A DNA stretch of 64,000 nucleotides from an uncultured Actinomycetes bacterium. GTDB taxonomy: Bacteria > Actinomycetota > Thermoleophilia > Gaiellales > Gaiellaceae. Below are positions 31,106-59,733 of this stretch, one piece after another. The notes beneath the pieces are model-generated. The model was not told where the DNA came from, did not search any database, and saw nothing but the letters and a program-made list of their open reading frames with translations. Where the stretch lies: contig CAWAAD010000004.1 of the NCBI GenBank assembly GCA_963779895.1, forward strand, positions 201,543-265,542, given 5' to 3'. Both the position numbers and the translations under genes were made by a program. The stretch's first letter is position 1; the number at the start of each line of letters is the position of its first letter.

Positions 31106-33554
<2,449 letters not shown>

Positions 33555-33573
<19 letters not shown>

Positions 33574-39608: not shown

Positions 39609-40358
39609 GTGAGCGCCCTTGCAGCAGCCGGTCGTCGCTACCTGCCCAGAGGGTGGGCCGACCTCGGCCGCCAGGTTGCGATCTGGTTCGGCTTTCTCGC
39701 CGCCTACCAGCTCGCGCGCGGCCTGGCCGACCGCAACCCCCCGCGCGCCTTCCAGAACGGGCTGCACGTGATCGGGATCGAGCGCCACGCGCACGCGCTG
39801 ATCGAGCTCACGCTCCAGCGCTTGGTGGACGGTTCGCAGCTGCTCGCCACGCTCGCGTCGTGGACCTACTGGAACTCGGAGTTCACCGTAGTCGGGCTCG
39901 CGCTCATGTGGGTCTACCTCCGCCGGAACGACGCCTTCGTGCGCTTCCGGAACGCGATCCTGCTCGCGAACGTGCTCGGGCTCGTGGGCTACATCTTCCT
40001 GCCGACCGCGCCACCGAGGATGTTCCCCGACCTCGGCTTCGTGGACACGCTCGCCGACTTCAGCGGCCTCAACCACGGGAGCGGGCTCGTCGAGGTCGTC
40101 TCGAACCCCTACGCCGCGATGCCGAGCCTGCACGCCGCGGACGCCCTGATCGTCGGGCTCGTCCTCTTCTCCGTCTGCCGGACGCGCTTCCTGAAGCCTC
40201 TCTGGCTGGTCTGGCCGGCGTGGGTCTGGTTCAGCGTGATGGCGACGGGCAACCACTTCTGGCTCGACGTCCTGGCCGGGATTTTCGTGGCGGCGATCGC
40301 GTACGGGATCGTCTACGGGCGCCCGCTCCGGCGCTTCCGCCGGCCGGCGACGGCCTAG
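39609..40358 (+). CDS. PAP2_C / inositol-phosphorylceramide-synthase-like membrane phosphatase family protein
   Basis: Intact 249 aa and polytopic. It has the motifs NPYAAMPSLHAADAL and ATGNHFWLDVLAG, typical of the PAP2 C-terminal (Aur1/sphingomyelin-synthase-like) family. Confidence 0.7.
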   Translation: MSALAAAGRRYLPRGWADLGRQVAIWFGFLAAYQLARGLADRNPPRAFQNGLHVIGIERHAHALIELTLQRLVDGSQLLATLASWTYWNSEFTVVGLALMWVYLRRNDAFVRFRNAILLANVLGLVGYIFLPTAPPRMFPDLGFVDTLADFSGLNHGSGLVEVVSNPYAAMPSLHAADALIVGLVLFSVCRTRFLKPLWLVWPAWVWFSVMATGNHFWLDVLAGIFVAAIAYGIVYGRPLRRFRRPATA

Positions 40359-40362
40359 TCTC

Positions 40363-41001
40363 TTGAGCCGCCCGGCCGGCCTTGCCGCGGTGAAGCGCGG
40401 CTACACGGACGGCACCCGCCGCCTCGCCTCGCGCTGGATCGGCGGCCTCGCGCGCACGCGCGTGACTCCGAACGCCCTCACCGCCGCCGGTATCAGCCTC
40501 TGCGGCGTCGCCGCGGTGCTCGTCTGGTTCGGCGACCACGACCAGTGGCCGATCTACTGGGGCGCCGCCGTGCTCTTCGTCGTCGGCTCGGTGCTCGACA
40601 TCCTCGACGGGGCGCTCGCCCGCCACGGAGGCAAGGCGACTCCGTTCGGCGCGTTCCTCGACTCGATCTCCGACCGCGTGAGCGAAGGGTTCGTGCTGAC
40701 CGCGGTCGCGCTCGTCTTCTCCCGCCACGGGAACGAGGTCGCCCTCGCGTTTGCGATCGCGGCGATGGCCGGCTCGTTCCTCGTCTCCTATGCGCGCGCG
40801 AAGGCCGAGCTGCTCGGGCTGCGCGGAGACGTCGGCCTCGGCAGCCGCGCCGAGCGCGTGGTCGTGATCACGGGCGGCCTCGTCTTCGCTCCTTGGGGCG
40901 GGCTGCAGTGGGCGATCTATTTCCTCGCGCTGACCGCGTGGTTCACAGTCCTCCAGCGGGTCATGAGCGTCCGCAAGCAACTCCGCGCCGACCGCCTCTA
41001 G
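40363..41001 (+). CDS. CDP-alcohol phosphatidyltransferase, phosphatidylinositol-phosphate synthase-like
   Basis: Exact family motif D-x2-DG-x2-AR-x8-G-x3-D-x3-D in [28 protein letters not shown]. Polytopic. It sits 4 nt after the PAP2 gene and immediately upstream of ino1. The substrate assignment is inferred from context. Confidence 0.8.
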
Positions 41002-41005
41002 CCCC

Positions 41006-41033
41006 TATACTGCTAGCACTCCTGTGCTAGCAC
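41006..41033 (+). promoter_or_regulatory. Candidate -10 box plus duplicated palindromic operator TGCTAGCA(C) x2
   Basis: TATACT at 41006-41011. The 9-mer TGCTAGCAC occurs at 41011-41019 and 41025-41033 (14-nt register), and each copy contains the perfect 8-bp palindrome TGCTAGCA. The second copy overlaps the GTG start (41024) of the Arc-like ORF. Confidence 0.45.
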
Positions 41034-42469
41034 CGACCCGCAAAGGTGTCCTCGTCCGAATGCCAGCGGCGCTGAAGCGGCTCCTCTCCGACGAGGTGAC
41101 CCGCTCCGGCCGGAGCCTCAACGACGTCGCGGTGGGAATCCTCGCGTCCCGCTTCGCAGTCTCGTTCGAGCCGAGTGGCCGACCGGGCAGGCCGCCGGGC
41201 CGAAGCGGATCGGTGCTCCTGCGCATGCCGCCCGAGCTGAAGGAGACGCTCACCGCGCGCGCGGCACAGCGCAAGCGCAAAGTCAACGACCTGATCGTCG
41301 AGACGCTCTCGGAGCGCCTCGGAAAGGAACCCATGGCTGCAACCAACGGCAAGGTGCGACGCTCGGACGACAAGGTCCGCGTCGCGATCATCGGCGTCGG
41401 CAACTGCGCGAGCTCACTCGTGCAGGGCGTCGAGTACTACAAGGATGCCGAGCCCGGAACGTTCGTGCCCGGCCTGATGCACGTCGATCTCGGCGGCTAC
41501 CACGTCCGCGACGTCGAGTTCACGGCCGCCTTCGACGTCACCACCGACAAGGTCGGCAAGGATCTCTCCGAAGCGATCTGGGGGCACCCGAACAACACGA
41601 TCAAGTTCTCCGACGTGCCCAAGACGGGCGTAACCGTCAATCGCGGGATGACCCACGACGGGCTCGGGAAGTACCTCTCGGAGGTCGTGACCAAGGCCCC
41701 CGGCGAGACCGACGACGTGGTCGGGATCCTCAAGGAGACGGGCACCGACGTGGTCGTCAACTACCTGCCGGTCGGCTCCGAGGAGGCGACCAAGTGGTAC
41801 ACGGAGCAGATCCTGAACGCGGGCTGCGCGATGGTCAACTGCATGCCGATCTTCATCGGGCGTGAGAGCTACTGGCAGCGGCGCTTCGAGGAGAAGGGCC
41901 TGCCGATCATCGGCGACGACATCAAGTCGCAGGTCGGCGCCACGATCACGCATCGCGTCCTGATGGGCATCTTCCGCGACCGCGGCGTCAAGGTCGACCG
42001 CACCTACCAGCTCAACTTCGGCGGGAACTCCGACTTCCTGAACATGCTGGAGCGGGAGCGGCTCGAGTCGAAGAAGATCTCGAAGACCTACTCGATCAAG
42101 TCCACGCTGCCGTACGAGCTCGAGGAGAAGAACATCCACGTCGGCCCCTCCGACCACGTCCCGTGGCTCGAGGACCGCAAGTGGGCCTACATCCGGATCG
42201 AGGGAACGGCCTTCGGCGACGTGCCGCTGAACGCGGAGCTGAAGATCGAGGTCTGGGACTCGCCCAACTCGGCCGGGGTCGTGATCGACGCCGTCCGGCT
42301 GGCGAAGCTGGCGCTCAACCAGGGCGTCTCCGGAACTCTCGGCGCGCCGAGCGCCTACCTGATGAAGTCGCCGCCGAAGCAGATGAAGGACGAGGATGCT
42401 CGCGACCTCACCGAAGACTTCATCCGCAAGCACGCCCGGAAACAGACCAAGCAGCCGGCGAAGGCGTAG
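41024..42469 (+). CDS. ino1: Tandem Arc/ribbon-helix-helix module fused in frame to myo-inositol-1-phosphate synthase
   Basis: Residues 1-103 contain two RHH repeats: [37 protein letters not shown] and [38 protein letters not shown]. They are joined by a Pro/Gly linker. Residues 104-481 are MIPS ([16 protein letters not shown] Rossmann, [16 protein letters not shown]). There is no stop between the modules. An RBS-like GAAAGGAA lies before Met104 (41333). Confidence 0.85.
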
Positions 42470-42480
42470 CAGACTCGGAA

Positions 42481-42512
42481 AGCGGGCGCTGGGATCGCCT
42501 CCAGCGCCCGCT
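42481..42512 (+). terminator. Strong intercistronic hairpin after ino1 (12-bp perfect stem, no U-tract)
   Basis: AGCGGGCGCTGG (42481-42492), loop GATCGCCT, CCAGCGCCCGCT (42501-42512). It lies 12 nt after the ino1 stop and is followed by ACACGGCC, not a T-run. Confidence 0.4.
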
Positions 42513-42565
42513 ACACGGCCGGCGTCCCAAGAGCCGAGGAGCAGCGCCGGGCTACACTCGGGGCG

Positions 42566-44299
42566 ATGGGCCTGCGCGTTTGCCTGGTCACACCCTTTGC
42601 CTGGTCGCGGCCCCACGACGTCAACGAGCACGTTGCCGGGATCGCCGCCGAGCTGCGCGCGCTCGGCCACCTGGTGACCGTGCTCGCGCCCTCGACCCGC
42701 GCGGCCGACCTGCTCGCCGGGCGGCGCGCCCTGCTCGACGGCGCAGGCGAGGAGGTGATCGCCCTCGGCCCGGCCGTTCCGGTCTCGCGGCGGAGCCGGA
42801 TCGGCGTGCCGGTGGGAGTGCGGGCCAACCTGGCGCTCGCGCTCGCCCGAGGCGGCTACGACGTCGTCCACGGCTTCGAGCCCGGGCTGCCCAGCCTCTC
42901 GTACCTGGCGCTCCGCGACGCGCAGGCGCTGGCGGTGGCGACCTTTCTCTCGGCGGAGCGGCTCGGCTACCCGCCCGGGCGTGCGCAGCGGGAGCGGCTG
43001 CTGGGGCGGCTCGACGCGCTGCTCGCGACCTCGGAGGCAACCGCGGAGGCTGCAGCCGAGCGGCTGCCCGGCGACTACCGCGTGCTCTCTCCCGGCGTCG
43101 ACACCGAGCTCTTCCGGCCCGGACGCAAGCGAAGCCTCGTCGTCTACGAGTGGCGGCCGGCCGAGCGTCCCCTCGGCCGTGCGGTCGCCCGGGCGCTGCG
43201 TGGGCTGCCCGACTGGGAGCTCGTGGTGCTGCGGACGAAACCGCTCGCGGGGCGCCCGACGATCTCGCGCTCGCTGCGCGGCCGCGCGCACGTGCGCACG
43301 CTGCGCGACGGGGCGGCGAGGGCGCCGCTGCTCGGGGAGGCGGCGCTCTTCGTACCCGCCTTCGACGGCGTCGAGCGCGTCGCGCTGGAGGCCGGGGCGG
43401 CGGGCGCCGCGATCGTCTCCCCACCCGGCGTCCGCGAGCAACCCGAGCTCGCAGCCGCCGCGATCCTCCGCCTGGCCGAGGACGCCGACTTCCGGGACCG
43501 CTCGGGCACCAGAGCCCGCGCGGACGCCGAGAAGCAGAGCTTTGCCGAGCTGGCCCGCGAGATCGACGGCGTCTACCGCGAGCTCGGGACGCGAAGGAAG
43601 CGCCGCCCGCCGGTGCGGACGATCCCGGCCGAGCACGACTGGATCGCCGTCGACCTCCACCTCCACACCAACTGGTCGCACGACTGCCAGATCCCGGTCG
43701 AGGAGCTGCTCGACCAGGCCGAGGCGCAAGGGCTTGGCGCAATTGCCGTCACCGACCACAACGTCTTCGGTGGCGCTCTCGAGGCGGTCGAGCTTGCCCG
43801 CGGCCGCGACCTGGTGGTGATACCGGGAGAGGAGGTCAAGACCGACGGCCAGGGCGAGGTGATCGGCCTCTTCCTCTCCGAGGAGATCCCGCGCGGCCTG
43901 TCGTTTGCGGAGACGATCGCGGCGATCAAGGCGCAGGGCGGAATCGTCTATCTCCCCCACCCCTTCGACCGGCTGCACGCGATCCCCGACGCGGCCACCC
44001 TGCACCGGCACCTGCAGGATCTCGACGTCCTCGAGGTCTACAACGCGCGGCTGCTGTTCGAGACCTACAACGACGAGGCCCTCCGCTTCGCGCGCAAGTA
44101 CGGGCTGACGATGGGCGCCGGCTCGGACGCGCACGTAGTCCAGGGGATCGGGACGGGCGGTCTGCGGATGCCTGCTTTCGACGGGCCGGAGGAGTTCCTG
44201 GCCGGCCTCCGCCTGGCCCAGGTCCTGCGGCGCCCGCGCTCGCTCCTCTACCTCCAGTCTCTGAAGTGGGCGGCCCAGGCCAAGGAAAGGGTCCGCTAG
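42566..44299 (+). CDS. GT4 (PimA-like) glycosyltransferase fused to a C-terminal PHP-domain phosphoesterase
   Basis: Intact 577 aa. The N-terminal ~340 aa form a GT-B fold (MGLRVCLVTPFAW...HDVNEHV, ...FDGVERVALEAGAAGAAIV). From ~aa 355 (nt ~43640) the PHP motifs appear: VDLHLHTNWSHDC, AVTDHN, IPGEEV, YLPHPFD, GAGSDAH. Confidence 0.85.
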   Translation: MGLRVCLVTPFAWSRPHDVNEHVAGIAAELRALGHLVTVLAPSTRAADLLAGRRALLDGAGEEVIALGPAVPVSRRSRIGVPVGVRANLALALARGGYDVVHGFEPGLPSLSYLALRDAQALAVATFLSAERLGYPPGRAQRERLLGRLDALLATSEATAEAAAERLPGDYRVLSPGVDTELFRPGRKRSLVVYEWRPAERPLGRAVARALRGLPDWELVVLRTKPLAGRPTISRSLRGRAHVRTLRDGAARAPLLGEAALFVPAFDGVERVALEAGAAGAAIVSPPGVREQPELAAAAILRLAEDADFRDRSGTRARADAEKQSFAELAREIDGVYRELGTRRKRRPPVRTIPAEHDWIAVDLHLHTNWSHDCQIPVEELLDQAEAQGLGAIAVTDHNVFGGALEAVELARGRDLVVIPGEEVKTDGQGEVIGLFLSEEIPRGLSFAETIAAIKAQGGIVYLPHPFDRLHAIPDAATLHRHLQDLDVLEVYNARLLFETYNDEALRFARKYGLTMGAGSDAHVVQGIGTGGLRMPAFDGPEEFLAGLRLAQVLRRPRSLLYLQSLKWAAQAKERVR

Positions 44300-44320: not shown

Positions 44321-44905
44321 TTGCCTGCCGTGAGCGACGAGATCTTCGAGAAGTACCTGCAAAAAGCCATCGCCGAGATCAACGAGCTCGGCGACGAGAT
44401 CGCGCGCGCAGCCGGCGACGGCCGGGTGCCGGTGCTGGGTTCGGGCCACCCGCTGGCGGACGTGCTGCTGCTCAAGCACTCGCCGCGCAGCTCGGAGATC
44501 CAGGAGGGCGTGGCCTTCTACGGGCGCGCGGGGCAGGCGATCCTGAAGTCGCTGCAGCGCTTGCACGTCGACCCGATGGCGGTCTACGGGACGAACTGCC
44601 TCAAGTTCGCCGACGGCGATCCCGAGGAGGCGCGGCCGTGGCTCGCGCGGGAGCTGCACATCGTCCAGCCGAAGCTCGTGGTCGTGATGGGCGAGCCCGC
44701 GCTCGGGTTCCTGAACGAGCTCGAGTTCCCGCTCGCGGAGCCGCTCCAGCCCGCCCTCGGCGAGCTGCGGCGCTTCACGCCGACGATCGAGGCGCTCTTC
44801 GTCCCGGACGTCGACGAGTCGCTCGACGAGCAGCCGGCGAAGACCCGGTTCTGGAACGCGTTCAAGGCACTGGGCCCCTGGTGGGCCGAGCTTCCGCCTT
44901 ATTGA
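44321..44905 (+). CDS. Uracil-DNA glycosylase superfamily protein (atypical motifs)
   Basis: Intact 194 aa. The segment VPVLGSGHPLADVLLLKHSPRSSEIQEGVAFYGRAGQAILKSL aligns to the family-4/5 UDG N-terminal region, but the GE(A/G)PG position reads KHSPR. No Fe-S cysteines. Confidence 0.6.
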   Translation: MPAVSDEIFEKYLQKAIAEINELGDEIARAAGDGRVPVLGSGHPLADVLLLKHSPRSSEIQEGVAFYGRAGQAILKSLQRLHVDPMAVYGTNCLKFADGDPEEARPWLARELHIVQPKLVVVMGEPALGFLNELEFPLAEPLQPALGELRRFTPTIEALFVPDVDESLDEQPAKTRFWNAFKALGPWWAELPPY

Positions 44906-45618
44906 GCCCGAGGGTCGCGGCCTTTCTCGCGCTGGCCGCGGCGCTCGGCGCCTACTACGCCCTGCACGAGTCGCTCTGGCGCGGCTCGGTCTGGCAGGAC
45001 ATCGCGTTCCTCGCGTTCGTCCTGATCCCCGCCGTGTTCGGGCTCGTCCACCTCGCGCTTCCGTACTGGCGCTCACCGCCGCTACAGCTCTTCGTCACCG
45101 GCCTTGCCTTCGTCGTCCTCGCGGTCGTGCTCGAGCTTGCGGATGCGTCGATCCCGGCCGACTTCGCCAAGCTCGCCGCGATGACGGCGCTCGCCTGGGT
45201 CTTCCTGAACTACTTCGAGGGCGCCTCCTGGGTCGTGCTCATCGCCCTGATCGTGCCCTGGGTGGACGCGTACTCCGTCTGGCGCGGCCCGACCCACAAG
45301 ATCATCGCCCACCGCGAGAACGTGTTCACGACGCTCTCGTTCGCGTTTCCGCTGCCGGGTGAGGGCGAGAGCGCGAACCTCGGGCTGCCCGACCTGCTCT
45401 TCTTCGCGCTCTTCCTGGGCGCCGCCGCGCGGTTCCGGCTGCGCCTCTTCTGGACCTGGCTCGGGCTGAGCCTGTCCATCGGCGGGACGCTGGCGCTCGC
45501 CTACTGGGCCGGCGTCCGCGGGCTGCCGGCGCTGCCGCTGCTCTCGCTCGGCTTCCTGCTCCCGAACGCCGACCTCCTCTGGCGCGCGGCCCGGGAGGAA
45601 CGCCGCGCCGGCCGATGA
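44902..45618 (+). CDS. Polytopic membrane protein of unknown function
   Basis: The tail of ORF 42163-45618 from the TTG at 44902 (overlapping the UDG stop). About 6 TM helices (AFLALAAALGAYY, IAFLAFVLIPAVFGLV, LFVTGLAFVVLAVVL, ...). Confidence 0.55.
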   Translation: MSPRVAAFLALAAALGAYYALHESLWRGSVWQDIAFLAFVLIPAVFGLVHLALPYWRSPPLQLFVTGLAFVVLAVVLELADASIPADFAKLAAMTALAWVFLNYFEGASWVVLIALIVPWVDAYSVWRGPTHKIIAHRENVFTTLSFAFPLPGEGESANLGLPDLLFFALFLGAAARFRLRLFWTWLGLSLSIGGTLALAYWAGVRGLPALPLLSLGFLLPNADLLWRAAREERRAGR

Positions 45619-45624
45619 CCGGGG

Positions 45625-46338
45625 TCAGGCGAGCCGCTGCAAGAAACCGCCGGGATGGCAGGAAAGGCCGTACAGCTCCAGGTCGCGGCGAACTCTGAAC
45701 CGACGTCCTTCAGCCGTCTGAAGCCACGCCTCGATCGCAGGCAGAACCCCCCGCGGCCAGTCGGCGGCGAGCCGCATCTCCTCGATGTCGACGCAGCCAT
45801 CCTCGACCACGAAGAAGCCGCCGCGGGGAACGAACCGGGCGAACGACTCGAGCGCGGCCATCGTCGTTTCGTACGTGTGCGCCGAGTCCTCGACGACGAG
45901 GCAACTGGGGTCGGGCGGTAGCGCCGCCTCTACGCGGGCCGCTGTCGCATCGTCTCGGACGTCGCCGTCGATGAGGACGATCGTCTCCTCGAAGCCGGGG
46001 TCGACGGCGTGGAGGTTGGCCCGAGCCGGGGACGTGTCCAGGTCGAGGGAGACGACCTGATAGCGGTTCCGAGACGTGTATGCGGCCAGAGCCCGCAGTC
46101 GATCTCTGAACCAGAGAGCGCTCCCGCCGAACTGCGAGCCGATCTCGATCACGCAGTTCGGCTTCGCCTCCCAGAGGAGGTGCTCGTACACGCGCAGGTC
46201 CTCGGGGAACTTCGACATCGGAATGCCCGCGTAGGAGTCTTGCGTGTGCTGCTCGACGCGCCGCAACCAGTAGTCGAGCACCGTTGCGTCCAGATCGGCT
46301 GCGACCCGAGGCGGCAACACGGCGGACAGGCTATCCAC
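45625..46338 (-). CDS. CmcI/cephalosporin-hydroxylase-family SAM-dependent O-methyltransferase
   Basis: Intact 237 aa. GIPMSKFPEDLRVYEHLLWEAKPNCVIEIGSQFGGSALWF...VVEDSAHTYE is typical of the CmcI/rhamnosyl O-methyltransferase family. Confidence 0.75.
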   Translation of the reverse strand: MDSLSAVLPPRVAADLDATVLDYWLRRVEQHTQDSYAGIPMSKFPEDLRVYEHLLWEAKPNCVIEIGSQFGGSALWFRDRLRALAAYTSRNRYQVVSLDLDTSPARANLHAVDPGFEETIVLIDGDVRDDATAARVEAALPPDPSCLVVEDSAHTYETTMAALESFARFVPRGGFFVVEDGCVDIEEMRLAADWPRGVLPAIEAWLQTAEGRRFRVRRDLELYGLSCHPGGFLQRLA

Positions 46339-46363
46339 CTGCCCGGTCCTGGCCGGCGCGCGG

Positions 46364-47732
46364 TCAGGGAGCGCGCGTGAGCAGCGCGACGGTCTCGACG
46401 TGCGGGGTGTGCGGGAACATGTCGACCGGGCGCGCTCGCTCGAGGCGGTAGCCCCACTCCCGCTCGAGCTCCTTCACGTTCGCGGCGAGCGTGGTCGGGT
46501 TGCACGAGACGTAGACGAGCCGCGGGGCCTCGAGCCGGGCCAGCCGGCGCAGAGCCTTGCCCGAGAGCCCGGCGCGCGGGGGGTCGACGACGGCGACGTC
46601 CGGCGACCCGGCGCGGTCGCGGAGCTCCTCCAGCGACGCGCCCGACCTCGCCGGCGAAGAAGGCCGCGTTCGTGATCCCGTTCAGGTCGGCGTTCTCGAG
46701 GGCGCAGGCGACCGACTCCTCCGAGACCTCGACGCCCCACACCGTCAGCGCCCGCGAGGCCAGCGTGAGCCCGATCGTCCCGATCCCGCAGTAGAGGTCG
46801 TACACGGTCTCGCTCCCGGTCAGCCCCGCGTACTCCCCGGCCAGCTCGTAGAGCCGCTCCGCCATCGCGGTGTTCGTCTGCAGGAAGGCGTTCGGGCGGA
46901 CGCGGAAGCGCAGCCCGCACAGCTCTTCCTCGATCGCGTCCTCTCCCCAGAGCAGCGTCGTGGGCAGGTTCGTCACCTCGGCGGGCGAGTCGTTCACCGA
47001 CCAGTGGATCGAGCGCACCTCCGGGAAGCGGCGCAGCACCTCGACGAGCTCGTCGCGATCGAAGCGCTCGCCCGCGGCCGTCACGAGCTGGACGAGGAGC
47101 TGCCCCGTGTTCCGCCCCTCGCGGAGGACGAGGTGGCGCAGGTAGCCGGTGTGCTCGGCCTGGTCGTAGGCCTCCAGCCTCTCGGCCCGCGCCCAGTCGC
47201 GCACGGCGTCGCGCACGGCGTTGCCGAGGTCGGTCGTGAGCCAGCAGCGCGAGATGTCGAGCACCTCGTCCCAGCGGCCCGCCTTGTGGAAGCCGAGCGC
47301 CGGGCCAGACGGCGTCGAGGTGAACGAGTACTCGAGCTTGTTCCGGTAGTGGAACTGCTCGACCGCGGGGACGATCGGCTCCAGAGGCGGCTCCTCCAGC
47401 CCGCCGATCCGGCGCAGGGCGTCCGCGACCTGCTCGGCCTTTGCCGCGACCTGGGCCTCGTACGCGAGATCCTGGAAGCGGCAGCCGCCGCACGCGGGGT
47501 AGTGCGCGCACGGCGCCTCGACCCGCTGCGCGCTCGGCTCCAGCACTTCGACCGCGAGCGCCTCCGCGTGGTTTCGCTTCACCTTCGTCACGCGCGCGCG
47601 CACGCGGTCGCCCGGGAGCCCTCGCCGGACGAAGACGACGAACCCGTTCAGGCGCGCGACGCCGTTCCCGCCGTACGCGAGCGAGTCGACCGAGAGCTCC
47701 AGCTCCTGGTCGCGGACAACAGGCGCGGCCAT
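46364..47732 (-). CDS. 23S rRNA (uracil-5-)-methyltransferase RlmD/RumA family (C-terminus frame-disrupted)
   Basis: A TRAM domain, the Fe-S motif CAHYPACGGCRFQ and SAM motif DLYCGIGTIGL (ORF 46149-47732). The C-terminal VVDPPRAGL and LVYVSCNPTTLA are in another frame and end ...LLTRAP-stop at 46364. Confidence 0.88.
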
Positions 47733-58915: not shown

Positions 58916-59733
58916 TCGGCGTCGGTGAGGCGCTGGTGCGGGTGCCGCCGAAGCTGACGGTGCCCGAGCGACGAGCGGGCAGGACACGCGGCAAGTCGGA
59001 CCCGATCGACGCGCTCGCGATCGCGCGGGCTGCGTTGCGCGAGCCGGACCTGGCCCGGCCGCATGCCGGCGAGCAGGTCTTGCGCGACCTGAAGCTGTTG
59101 GTGGATCATCGCGACGATCTGGTCGACCAGCGCCGCCGCTCTCAGCAGCGCTTGCGCTGGCATCTGCACGCGCTCGACCCGACCTTTGAGGTGCCCTTGC
59201 GCAAGCTCAGCCGCGCCTCGGAGCTTGAGCGGGTCCGCCGCTGGCTGGCGCGTCAGCCGAAGGGGATGTAGGTGCGGCTGGCGCGCGAGCTCGTCTCGAG
59301 CTGCCGCTCGCTCAACCGGACGATCAGCGAGCTCGACCAGGAGCTCGAGCGGCGAGCCGCCGAGCTCGCCCCGGCGCTGCTCGAGCTACCCGGCTGTGCC
59401 GGCGTCACGGCCGCCAAGCTGCTCGCCGAGATCGGCCCGATCAACCGCTTCCGAAGCGACGCCCAGCTCGCCCGACACAGCGGCGTCGCACCGCTCGAAG
59501 CCAGCTCAGGCCGCACCCAACGCCACCGGCTCGACCGCGGCGGCAACCGCCAACTCAACGCCGCCCTCTACCGGATCGCGATCACCCAGGCCCGCTACCA
59601 CGCCCCCGCCCGCGACTACCTCGAGCGCAAACGCGCCGAAGGCAAGAGCCGCCGCGAAGCGATCCGCTGCCTCAAACGACTCCTCATCCGAGCCGTCTAC
59701 CAGACCCTCAAAGCGAGCCCCGCCTTGACATAG
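58915..59733 (+). pseudogene. IS110-family transposase, N-terminally truncated and interrupted by an in-frame TAG (59269-59271)
   Basis: ALVRVPPKL...RGKSDPIDALAIARAAL is the distal part of the DEDD domain. The C-terminus is PGCAGVTAAKLLAEIGPINRFRSDAQLARHSGVAPLEASSG (Transposase_20). The first ~80 residues, with the first catalytic Asp/Glu, are absent. Confidence 0.8.

Follow-up and report, generated by a model that had tools for sequence, protein, structure and literature searches.

A GT4–PHP fusion as a candidate PIP phosphatase in an inositol-lipid gene cluster of Gaiellaceae

Which protein dephosphorylates PIP to PI in actinobacteria? The earlier note on this DNA considered the step to be without an assigned gene, in agreement with the literature consulted, which lists an assignment in Bacteroides only (PMC9246714). 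The locus analyzed here, part of a window of 64 kb (the whole stretch of DNA under study), encodes a PimA-like glycosyltransferase fused to a PHP domain, and we consider its PHP half a good candidate for this step in the group, one that is open to experiment but so far unproven. That it is the PIP phosphatase seems to us slightly better than an even bet. The whole model, in which the eroded GT half is also a membrane/PI(P)-targeting module and not a working mannosyltransferase, is more tentative and falls somewhat below even. The original proposal is therefore partly supported: the metal site, the PimA kinship and the PIPS/INO1 context speak for it, but the GT function and the PAP2 alternative do not hold up well.

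Genes of the cluster and the supply of PIP

The host of the cluster is a soil actinobacterium (Gaiellaceae). The features, in window coordinates, are as follows.

39609..40358, + strand: PAP2_3 membrane protein of the AUR1/IPC-synthase type, accessory cluster member
40363..41001, + strand: PIP synthase (PIPS), a CDP-alcohol phosphatidyltransferase
41011..41032, no strand: palindrome pair TGCTAGCA, candidate operator for the RHH domain
41024..41332, + strand: N-terminal extension of INO1, two ribbon-helix-helix (RHH; Arc/HicB-like) repeats
41333..42469, + strand: catalytic part of INO1, myo-inositol-3-phosphate (L-myo-inositol-1-phosphate) synthase
42481..42512, + strand: GC-rich hairpin directly 3′ of the INO1 stop codon
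42566..43600, + strand: GT4 (GT-B) half of the fusion, PimA-like, residues 1-345, basic, catalytic residues eroded
43640..44299, + strand: PHP half of the fusion, trinuclear-metal phosphoesterase family, residues 359-577, candidate PIP phosphatase
44321..44905, + strand: UDG-superfamily protein, acidic, catalytic motifs altered
44881..45618, + strand: polytopic membrane protein, homologue of presenilin/SPP-type GxGD proteases, start codon uncertain

The four co-directional ORFs reported earlier, from PAP2_3 to the fusion, are all found on the + strand, including the 4-nt gap between PAP2_3 and PIPS, and their codon-position GC (GC3 0.92-0.95, GC2 0.42-0.52) is typical for real genes at 70% genome GC. 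The PIPS ORF matches CDP-OH_P_transf, and the catalytic motif that had been called exact is read exactly in the translation (D79-x2-D82G83-x2-A86R87-x8-G96-x3-D100-x3-D104) and conserved across 58 orthologues. Its top PDB matches are Renibacterium PIPS (5d91, 1e-20) and M. tuberculosis PgsA1 (6h53, 1e-19), DIPP synthase being weaker (4mnd, 4e-6); in NCBIfam, AIP synthase (138 bits) and PIPSynth (121 bits) are both under cut-off. The ORF at 41024-42469 was correctly named as INO1: it matches Inos-1-P_synth (PF01658, 120 bits) and TIGR03450 (531 bits over residues 118-467). Both identities, assigned by homology, are well supported.

Two features of this region were not mentioned in the earlier note. 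The INO1 ORF carries an N-terminal extension of 103 aa with Pfam matches to HicB and Arc (E 2.6e-5 each), which is in frame in 22/60 Gaiellales loci; GGAAAGGAA precedes an internal ATG at 41333. The palindrome TGCTAGCA occurs only twice in the window, against 0.23 times expected by chance, and the two copies lie 14 nt apart; together they may form an operator for the RHH domain of the extension. The second feature is the GC-rich intergenic hairpin (13 bp, with no T-run), which may be a boundary between transcription units or an attenuator. The junction between INO1 and the fusion is loosely kept, with insertions of 0.1-5 kb in relatives, and the hairpin falls at this same junction; this is a point against the PIP-phosphatase model.

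The two halves of the fusion

The fusion at 42566-44299 matches Glyco_transf_4, PHP and PHP_C in Pfam, as had been described. In the PHP half, PHP covers residues 363-427 and PHP_C residues 501-552, both exceeding their cut-offs. It fills 9/9 positions of the metal-ligand consensus H, H, D/H, H, E, H, C/H, D/N, H (PMC3666897), with H365, H367, D373, H398, E423, H465, H471, D521 and H523. The phosphatase idea hinged on these ligands; all are present, each is either invariant or conserved to 90% or more among 14-34 fusions, and they are held across fusions down to 37% identity. In a confident structure model (pLDDT 90.7, pTM 0.87) the fold of this half matches TM0559 (2anu) and RNase AM (predicted structure, Foldseek). 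No NCBIfam equivalog model reaches its cut-off on this half (nearest, CehA/McbA domain, 72 bits vs 80), and the closest characterized relatives of the half are nucleotide or RNA enzymes, the pAp phosphatase Cv1693 and RNase AM. We know of no PHP enzyme that acts on a lipid head-group. The searches turned up no PHP of this family outside a fusion; genes that look standalone are contig-truncated or frameshifted fusions.

The GT half matches Glyco_transf_4 at residues 19-181, and PimA is its only PDB sequence match (7e-10) and its top Foldseek match (5e-15), so that PimA is indeed the closest solved relative by sequence and fold. Its pI is 10.4; peripheral lipid-binding GTs are likewise strongly basic. 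Relative to PimA, however, G15G16 is replaced by HD, H118 by L, K202 by L and Q18 by N, and the 59-70 loop is shortened, with Y62 and N63 deleted; in PimA, G16 and K202 contact the β-phosphate and H118 is mutationally critical (PMC9202250). The GG loop is missing in 34/34 fusions and K202 is lost in nearly all, position 118 being L, F, S or I within the window's clade. The donor domain is undetectable, with no Glycos_transf_1 domain (Pfam) or NCBIfam GT model found in the window's GT half. Only one GT-half residue is invariant across 14 fusions, and this half evolves faster (30-39% identity in distant fusions, vs 49-59% for the PHP half). Given the missing donor-binding and critical residues and the faster evolution of the GT half relative to the PHP half, it is doubtful that the window's fusion makes PIM1, and a targeting role appears more likely. 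The same losses make doubtful the earlier description of the GT half as the enzyme that consumes PI, and of the cluster as one module from glucose-6-P to PIM1.

It is conceivable, though unlikely, that the fusion is bifunctional, its PHP half turning PIP into PI for the GT half to mannosylate to PIM1 as PimA does, or the GT half mannosylating PIP first. PimA is after all the nearest relative, the window protein retains R196, E199, E274 (as D/E) and E282, and we found no second PimA-like gene in the window or in any relative locus examined, while Solirubrobacter, a member of the Thermoleophilia, makes both PI and PIMs (PMC10722151). Set against these points are the residue losses and undetected donor domain described above. 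Since P0166 keeps H118, RKG, E274 and E282, and P0153 has a detectable Glycos_transf_1 domain (P0144 also has a recognizable donor domain), GT activity may persist somewhere in the fusion family.

Neighbours of the fusion and other assignments

Conservation of the gene neighbourhood, a check proposed with the original idea, is found in deeply divergent relatives: PIPS lies upstream of the fusion in 7/8 and INO1 in 6/8 informative divergent lineages (38-51% identity), and the outer flanks differ among those that keep the cluster context. The order is PAP2_3-PIPS-INO1-fusion in L082 and L086-89, PIPS-INO1-fusion in L093-95 and PIPS-INO1-x-fusion in L083/84, and PIPS abuts the fusion in L085; apart from the fusion, the clusters of L083/84 and L093-95 contain no hydrolase candidate. 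Against the model, neither PIPS nor INO1 was found within 7-8 kb of the fusion in L021, L048, L059 and L081. RumA is syntenic in 70/80 loci and 5/9 divergent lineages, and DnaK is also syntenic; both genes are unrelated, and all named fusion carriers are Thermoleophilia. The PIPS/INO1 association may therefore partly reflect inherited gene order. Since all named members belong to this class, and no mycobacterial orthologue was seen, a PIP phosphatase in Thermoleophilia, if true, would not alone assign the mycobacterial enzyme.

The gene found most consistently beside the fusion had no place in the earlier account of the cluster. The UDG-like gene lies beside the fusion in 77/80 Gaiellales loci and 8/9 divergent lineages, with overlapping stop and start codons in some, and the pair is kept in L081 without PIPS or INO1. 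It is followed by the presenilin-like gene (75/80 loci), whose product finds presenilin-1 (8.6e-5) and presenilin-2 (2.2e-4) in profile searches, with GLPD aligned to GLGD and PALP to PAL. The PIP-phosphatase model leaves both proteins unexplained. One could instead suppose that the fusion and the UDG-fold protein are a pair processing nucleotides or nucleic acids (for example, as a pAp phosphatase, 5′-3′ exoribonuclease or DNA-end phosphoesterase), next to inositol genes by inherited Thermoleophilia gene order. The tight pairing, the RumA and DnaK synteny and the nucleotide or RNA enzymes among the best PHP family and structure matches favor this reading, yet we judge it improbable. The UDG-like protein (Pfam UDG 37.8 bits; UDG_fam4 35 bits vs a 125-bit cut-off) lacks both catalytic motifs, with KHSPR for GE[AG]PG in motif A and VPD for HPS in motif B, and it is strongly acidic (pI 4.8; median 4.8, n=85), unlike DNA-binding glycosylases. 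A role in nucleic-acid processing is not obvious for a PimA-like lipid GT module, the L081 neighbours are again lipid head-group genes (GlcN-PG-synthase-like GT4, LPG_synthase_TM), and PIPS directly abuts the fusion in L085.

The upstream membrane protein had been offered as the alternative phosphatase. Its likeness to IPC synthase stands, but its family is PAP2_3 (PF14378, 144 bits) and not PAP2_C. PAP2 phosphomonoesterases are marked by a C1 K-x6-RP motif and a C3 arginine. Across 50 orthologues, PTAPP, PS.H and NH..LD are conserved and the K-x6-RP and S-R motifs are absent, so that just the His-His-Asp pattern remains, as in IPC and sphingomyelin synthases. Yeast AUR1 IPC synthase (9ivc, 9vj3), the only solved PAP2_3 relative and sole PDB sequence match, shares the PS.H and H..D motifs, although the similarity is distant (E 4e-6 over 69 residues). 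PAP2_3 is a weak phosphatase candidate because its motif pattern is that of the AUR1/IPC-synthase transferases and not of phosphomonoesterases; a role as a phosphoinositol transferase at a step beyond PI is more probable. That it is nevertheless the PIP phosphatase, by analogy with PgpB on PGP, the fusion having some other envelope-related role, would fit its 4-nt spacing from PIPS, the pair kept in Gaiellales, L082, L086 and L089, and the lipid phosphate phosphatases of the PAP2 superfamily. We regard this as quite unlikely, the gene being absent from 4/8 informative divergent lineages (L081, L083/84, L093/94 and L095) that still have PIPS or the fusion.

There is a similarly small chance that the fusion follows an MshA/MshA2 logic, its GT half glycosylating soluble inositol-3-phosphate and its PHP half removing the phosphate to leave a glycosyl-inositol as a precursor of thiols or compatible solutes. 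INO1 is the gene immediately upstream, MshA matches the structure of the GT half strongly (1.6e-12, Foldseek), synthase-phosphatase fusions are common in solute pathways, and the phosphatase after MshA is, to our knowledge, also without an assigned gene. On the other hand, neither a PDB search (E ≤ 1) nor the NCBIfam mshA equivalog (E ≤ 0.01) gives a match to MshA, the donor-binding residues are eroded, and among upstream partners it is PIPS, a lipid enzyme, that is retained most widely. Least probable is a soluble inositol-monophosphate phosphatase yielding free inositol, an analogue of the IMPase family: INO1 adjoins the fusion, and the PHP and IMPase families are described as analogues for histidinol phosphate (PMC5516325), but such an enzyme would compete with PIPS over one substrate and gives no reason for the PHP half to be always joined to a PimA-like membrane module.

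Proposed pathway and known systems

Taken together, we propose that the PI pathway is encoded as two adjacent units, (PAP2_3)-PIPS-INO1 and a second starting with the GT4–PHP fusion. By homology, INO1 would convert glucose-6-P to inositol-3-phosphate, which PIPS would join with CDP-diacylglycerol to give PIP. The PHP half would then most likely take the phosphate off the inositol of PIP on the cytoplasmic side of the membrane, yielding PI. That Solirubrobacter makes PI and PIMs agrees with such a pathway. Having apparently lost its sugar-nucleotide donor-binding residues in this Gaiellaceae lineage, the PimA-derived half probably serves mainly as a basic peripheral-membrane module that recognizes the PI(P) head-group and positions the phosphatase.

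TM0559, Cv1693 (2yb1), RNase AM/YciV (7ug9, 9etk) and HisJ have the same fold as the PHP half and the same trinuclear metal site of nine residues; they occur unfused, with nucleotides, RNA or histidinol phosphate as substrates, whereas the PHP half studied here is always fused to GT4. In mycothiol synthesis, MshA and the MshA2 phosphatase likewise combine a GT4 acting on inositol phosphate with a subsequent phosphatase, with INO1 nearby, but the GT half has no sequence-level match to MshA and its constant partner is a lipid enzyme. The mycobacterial operon pgsA1-patA-pimA (PIP synthase, acyltransferase, PimA) also places a PIP synthase with a PimA-type GT4, with PgsA1 and PimA as the closest relatives of known structure for the window's PIPS and GT half; the operon differs in having no PHP domain, INO1 or UDG-like gene and in a GT that retains G16, H118, K202 and the 59-70 loop, and no acyltransferase is present in the window's cluster.

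The closest precedent is the Bacteroides thetaiotaomicron cluster of BT_1522 (PI-DHC synthase), BT_1523 (PIPS), BT_1525 (PIP phosphatase, assigned in 2022) and BT_1526 (MIPS) (PMC9246714). Its phosphatase belongs to the PgpA family, whereas ours is a PHP domain joined to a PimA-like one, and neither a PgpA-like gene nor sphingolipid genes were seen at our cluster. Both systems, however, cluster the genes for the same MIPS, PIPS and PIP phosphatase logic, together with a PAP2_3/AUR1-like phosphoinositol transferase; in ours the phosphatase is a candidate and the transferase a likely one, BT_1522 being the best NCBIfam match of the window's PAP2_3 protein.

Gene content of the cluster and the predicted route to phosphatidylinositol phosphate

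The four co-directional open reading frames that the earlier note had taken for an inositol-phospholipid cluster all lie at the coordinates given there, and their codon-position GC signature is that of real genes in a genome of about 70% GC:

39609-40358 (+), PAP2_3 protein (PF14378, 144 bits)
40363-41001 (+), CDP-alcohol phosphatidyltransferase with the exact motif D79-x2-DG-x2-AR-x8-G-x3-D-x3-D104, here called PIP (phosphatidylinositol phosphate) synthase, PIPS
41024-42469 (+), inositol-phosphate synthase, INO1 (TIGR03450, 531 bits over residues 118-467)
42566-44299 (+), 577-aa fusion of a GT4 N-terminal domain (GT half) with PHP and PHP_C (PHP half)

The motif D-x2-DG-x2-AR-x8-G-x3-D-x3-D is kept in 58 PIPS orthologues. 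Judged by sequence matches, the predicted transferase is much nearer to solved PIP synthases (Renibacterium PIPS 5d91, 1e-20; M. tuberculosis PgsA1, 1e-19) than to other members of the family (DIPP synthase, 4e-6; PS synthase, ~1e-5), with scores below the NCBIfam equivalog cut-offs (PIPSynth 121 bits, cut-off 170; AIP synthase 138, cut-off 180). Synthesis of di-myo-inositol phosphate by this enzyme was rejected, as the protein is far nearer to PIPS than to DIPP synthase and the cluster has no cytidylyltransferase. INO1 matches PF01658 (Inos-1-P_synth) with 120 bits (cut-off 27) and falls under the TIGR03450 equivalog cut-off of 638. Taken together, the two identities support, by homology, a predicted route in which INO1 would convert glucose-6-P to inositol-3-P and PIPS would then make PIP.

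Three features surround the ends of the INO1 gene:

41011-41032, palindrome TGCTAGCA, with just two copies in the 64 kb window, 14 nt apart
41024-41332 (+), in-frame 103-aa N-terminal extension of INO1 with two ribbon-helix-helix (RHH; Arc/HicB-like) repeats
42481-42512 (+), perfect GC hairpin of 12-13 bp, without a T-run, directly 3′ of the INO1 stop codon

The extension is in frame with INO1 in 22 of 60 Gaiellales loci, and both copies of the palindrome lie just before or at the start of the INO1 ORF. This arrangement suggests that RHH-INO1 is an enzyme-fused autoregulator with the palindrome as its putative operator. The hairpin coincides with the loose junction between INO1 and the fusion, where related genomes have insertions of 0.1-5 kb (spacer of 0.1 to ~5 kb in the best 80 of 534 relatives, all Gaiellales), and therefore suggests two units, PAP2_3-PIPS-INO1 and fusion-UDG-like gene-membrane protein. 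Rfam, promoter and terminator scans of the cluster region gave nothing useful.

Further out, the cluster is set among housekeeping genes (ClpB-DnaJ-GrpE-DnaK, MoaA and a RumA-type methyltransferase), and no further lipid genes were found among the window proteins scanned outside the cluster. Some irregular features were seen there:

31106-33573 (-), ClpB, apparently broken into two ORFs that overlap in different frames (31106-32758 and 32734-33573)
45625-46338 (-), CmcI/rhamnosyl-O-methyltransferase-like ORF (Pfam 2e-27), overlapping the 3′ portion of a RumA-type ORF (46149-47732) in which the C-terminal ~150 aa seem to be read out of frame
59272-59733 (+), fragment of an IS110-family transposase (Transposase_20), ~15 kb downstream of the cluster

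The ClpB split may reflect a frameshift, an error in sequencing or a pseudogene. The CmcI-like ORF, missing from all 80 related Gaiellales loci (best 80 of 534 relatives), may be a lineage-specific insertion.

An intact PHP half joined to a PimA-like half

The fusion scores 44.1 bits for PHP (Pfam gathering threshold 26.4) and 45 bits for PHP_C (21.3). The metal-ligand consensus of PHP proteins has nine positions (H, H, D/H, H, E, H, C/H, D/N, H; PMC3666897), all of which are filled in the window protein, by H365, H367, D373, H398, E423, H465, H471, D521 and H523, position 7 being assigned by order only. These residues, together with D363 and D468, are invariant in 14 full-length fusions (37-73% identity) and at least 90% conserved in 34 fusion sequences. 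In the AlphaFold2 model of the fusion (pLDDT 90.7, pTM 0.87), the C-terminal half has a PHP-type fold and matches TM0559 (2anu, TMt 0.70) and RNase AM (7ug9, 9etk). Since the ligands are all conserved and the fold is that of the family, the objection that the metal site might be missing fails, and the PHP half is an intact hydrolase. The characterised proteins nearest to it act on nucleotides or RNA, and its substrate is unreadable from homology.

The GT half matches Glyco_transf_4 with 60.7 bits. M. smegmatis PimA is its sole PDB sequence match (7e-10) and also its top Foldseek match (5e-15), with a mycobacterial mannosyltransferase and MshA ranking below it, so that the earlier description as PimA-like is justified in the sense of nearest relative. 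MshA itself was rejected as an identity: it had neither an NCBIfam mshA match at E ≤ 0.01 nor a PDB sequence match at E ≤ 1, and the window GT half resembles it at the fold level alone.

We mapped the functional residues of PimA, as listed in PMC9202250, onto the window protein. In PimA the donor β-phosphate is contacted by G16, R196 and K202, plus the PRKG loop, and the residues critical by mutation are Y9, Q18, Y62, N63, R68, H118, R196, E199, R201 and E274 (PMC9202250). The window protein has HD in place of G15G16, L for K202, F for Y9, N for Q18, L for H118 and P for R201, and both Y62 and N63 are deleted; R68, R196, E199, E274 (as D/E) and E282 are kept. The GG loop is present in 0 of 34 fusions and K202 survives in almost none; H118 is missing from the whole of the window's clade and retained in most other lineages. 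Neither the Glycos_transf_1 donor domain nor an NCBIfam GT4 model found a match in the window protein, and a Glycos_transf_1/GT4 donor domain was detected in two relatives (P0144 and P0153).

The two halves also differ in how they have been conserved. Among the 14 full-length fusions, a single invariant residue falls in the GT half, versus dozens in the PHP half, and in distant members the GT half is 30-39% identical and the PHP half 49-59%. Their charge differs too, with a strongly basic GT half (pI 10.4, +10) and an acidic PHP half. We infer that the GT half is a module derived from PimA on which catalytic constraint has been relaxed, and that in this lineage it probably binds membrane and head-group and does not work as a mannosyltransferase. 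Some residual or altered glycosyltransferase activity may persist, especially in the ~700-aa clade. The proposal that the cluster carries the pathway on from PI (phosphatidylinositol) to PIM1, the PimA product, is thus doubtful in this lineage, given the lost donor contacts and critical residues and the undetected donor domain.

Neighbours of the fusion and their conservation

Two further genes follow the fusion:

44321-44905 (+), 194-aa protein of the UDG superfamily (Pfam UDG, 37.8 bits), here called UDG-like
44881-45618 (+), 245-aa membrane protein, 3′ of the UDG-like gene, with no Pfam match on its own

A scan of genome contigs confirmed 534 relatives of the fusion, of which the best 80 loci, all Gaiellales at 60-84% identity, were compared. 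Of these 80 loci, 77 have the UDG-like gene and 75 the membrane protein downstream of the fusion; INO1 (63 loci), PIPS (49) and PAP2_3 (46) were detected upstream, on contigs of which many are truncated. Three Gaiellales loci with the full 7 kb upstream have none of PAP2_3, PIPS and INO1. The unrelated RumA is present in 70 of the same 80 loci, and synteny within the order says little because RumA, DnaK and MoaA, all unrelated, are equally syntenic there. Therefore, we relied on nine divergent lineages at 38-51% identity, one of them (L096) cut upstream.

Gene order around the fusion at loci of the divergent lineages
L082, L086-88, L089: PAP2_3-PIPS-INO1-fusion-UDG-like
L093-95: PIPS-INO1-fusion-UDG-like, without PAP2_3
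L083/84: PIPS-INO1-(160 aa)-fusion, without PAP2_3 and without the UDG-like gene
L085: PIPS directly against the fusion, followed by the UDG-like gene
L081, 5240-7626 (-): fusion-UDG-like pair only, beside a GlcN-phosphatidylglycerol-synthase-like GT4 (148 bits, short of the cut-off) and an LPG_synthase_TM protein
L096: truncated upstream; fusion-UDG-like-membrane protein

Among the eight informative lineages, PIPS accompanies the fusion in seven, INO1 in six and PAP2_3 in three. The neighbourhood is thus conserved beyond close relatives, with the caveats that RumA is also nearby in five of the nine lineages and that every named carrier is a Thermoleophilia MAG. Close relatives of the fusion protein are labelled Gaiellaceae or Thermoleophilia. 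The LPG_synthase_TM family seen at L081 also occurs near Bacteroides inositol-lipid clusters, as reported by Heaver et al. (PMC9246714).

The UDG-like gene is the most faithful neighbour of the fusion, being also present in eight of the nine divergent lineages. Its product has matches of ~1e-7 to family-4 UDG and UdgX, and a UDG_fam4 score of 35 bits versus a 125-bit cut-off. Both UDG catalytic motifs are altered, motif A reading KHSPR (versus GE[AG]PG) and motif B VPD (versus HPS), and the protein has conserved motifs of its own (GSGHPLAD, EGVAF.GR.G, PD[IV]D..LD and FW.AF..G.W...PPY). There is one cysteine in the window protein and there are four to nine in orthologues outside Gaiellales, the latter in keeping with the four cysteines of the Fe-S cluster having been kept. 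With altered motifs A and B, one cysteine and a score below the cut-off, an assignment to family-4 uracil-DNA glycosylases was rejected and membership of the superfamily alone was retained; the protein does not resemble a DNA glycosylase. All 85 orthologues examined are acidic (median pI 4.82; window protein 4.8), and the protein may associate as a subunit with the basic GT half.

The membrane protein is also found at L085, L089, L093 and L096. A 17-sequence profile of it matches presenilin-1 (8.6e-5) and presenilin-2 (2.2e-4), aligning the invariant G168-x-P-D171 with the catalytic GLGD, P216-A-L-P219 with PAL and VD129 with YD. From this alignment, it looks like a bacterial homologue of presenilin/SPP-type intramembrane proteases.

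Candidates for the PIP phosphatase

Wherever bacteria and archaea synthesise PI by way of PIP, a PIP phosphatase is required. The bacterial enzyme was previously unidentified according to Heaver et al. (2022), whose assignment for Bacteroides is BT_1525, a member of the PgpA family with its gene clustered with those of PIPS and MIPS (PMC9246714), and in the literature searched the step is assigned in Bacteroides alone (2022). Our literature search found no paper assigning an actinobacterial or archaeal PIP phosphatase, and none linking a PHP domain to PI. A scan of the cluster genes and of 27 window proteins found no PgpA-family protein of the BT_1525 type.

The earlier note had offered the phosphoesterase of the fusion as the missing enzyme. 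With an intact metal site and a kept context, it stands as a credible, specific candidate for Thermoleophilia, and, combining both versions of this reading, we lean slightly towards the PHP half being the PIP phosphatase in that class. The reading does not extend directly to mycobacteria. No unfused PHP or GT protein of the fusion's family was found, as the three candidates for standalone orthologues (P0215, P0220 and P0248) proved to be contig-truncated or frameshifted fusions. The search thus gave no path to an orthologue in mycobacteria, and a result on the PHP half would not be directly transferable.

The other phosphatase proposed, the PAP2_3 protein, is a weak candidate. PAP2 phosphomonoesterases of the PgpB/LPP type are marked by the C1 motif K-x6-RP and the C3 motif S-R-x5-H-x3-D. 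Fifty PAP2_3 orthologues keep PTAPP, PS.H and NH..LD (a His-His-Asp pattern), and both the C1 motif and the arginine before the C3 histidine are absent among them. The sole PDB matches are yeast AUR1 IPC synthases, and the best NCBIfam match is the BT_1522 PI-DHC synthase model (45.8 bits versus a cut-off of 480). Owing to the AUR1 kinship, the missing phosphomonoesterase motifs and its dispensability in several lineages, we consider PAP2_3 to be probably a phosphoinositol transferase that acts downstream of PI, in agreement with BT_1522 of Bacteroides.

Returning to the PHP half, the fusion is built from known parts, its function being predicted, and it offers a concrete, expressible candidate protein for the PIP-to-PI step. 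A fuller and rather improbable version of this reading is that the fusion is a new lipid head-group phosphatase, in which a PimA-derived pseudo-glycosyltransferase, now recognising PI(P) and docking at the membrane, would bring the trinuclear-metal PHP phosphatase to PIP, and the enzyme would work with the acidic, catalytically remodelled UDG-fold partner, filling the PIP-to-PI step in Thermoleophilia. The reach would be limited, as the fusion is apparently confined to Thermoleophilia and would not point to the mycobacterial enzyme. If the PHP half does act on PIP, the PHP family would reach lipid substrates and a glycosyltransferase fold would have been re-used as a targeting domain. The PHP phosphatase for PIP would have no kinship with the PgpA, PAP2 and HAD phosphatases known to act on phospholipid head-groups, and would represent a third, non-homologous solution to their dephosphorylation.
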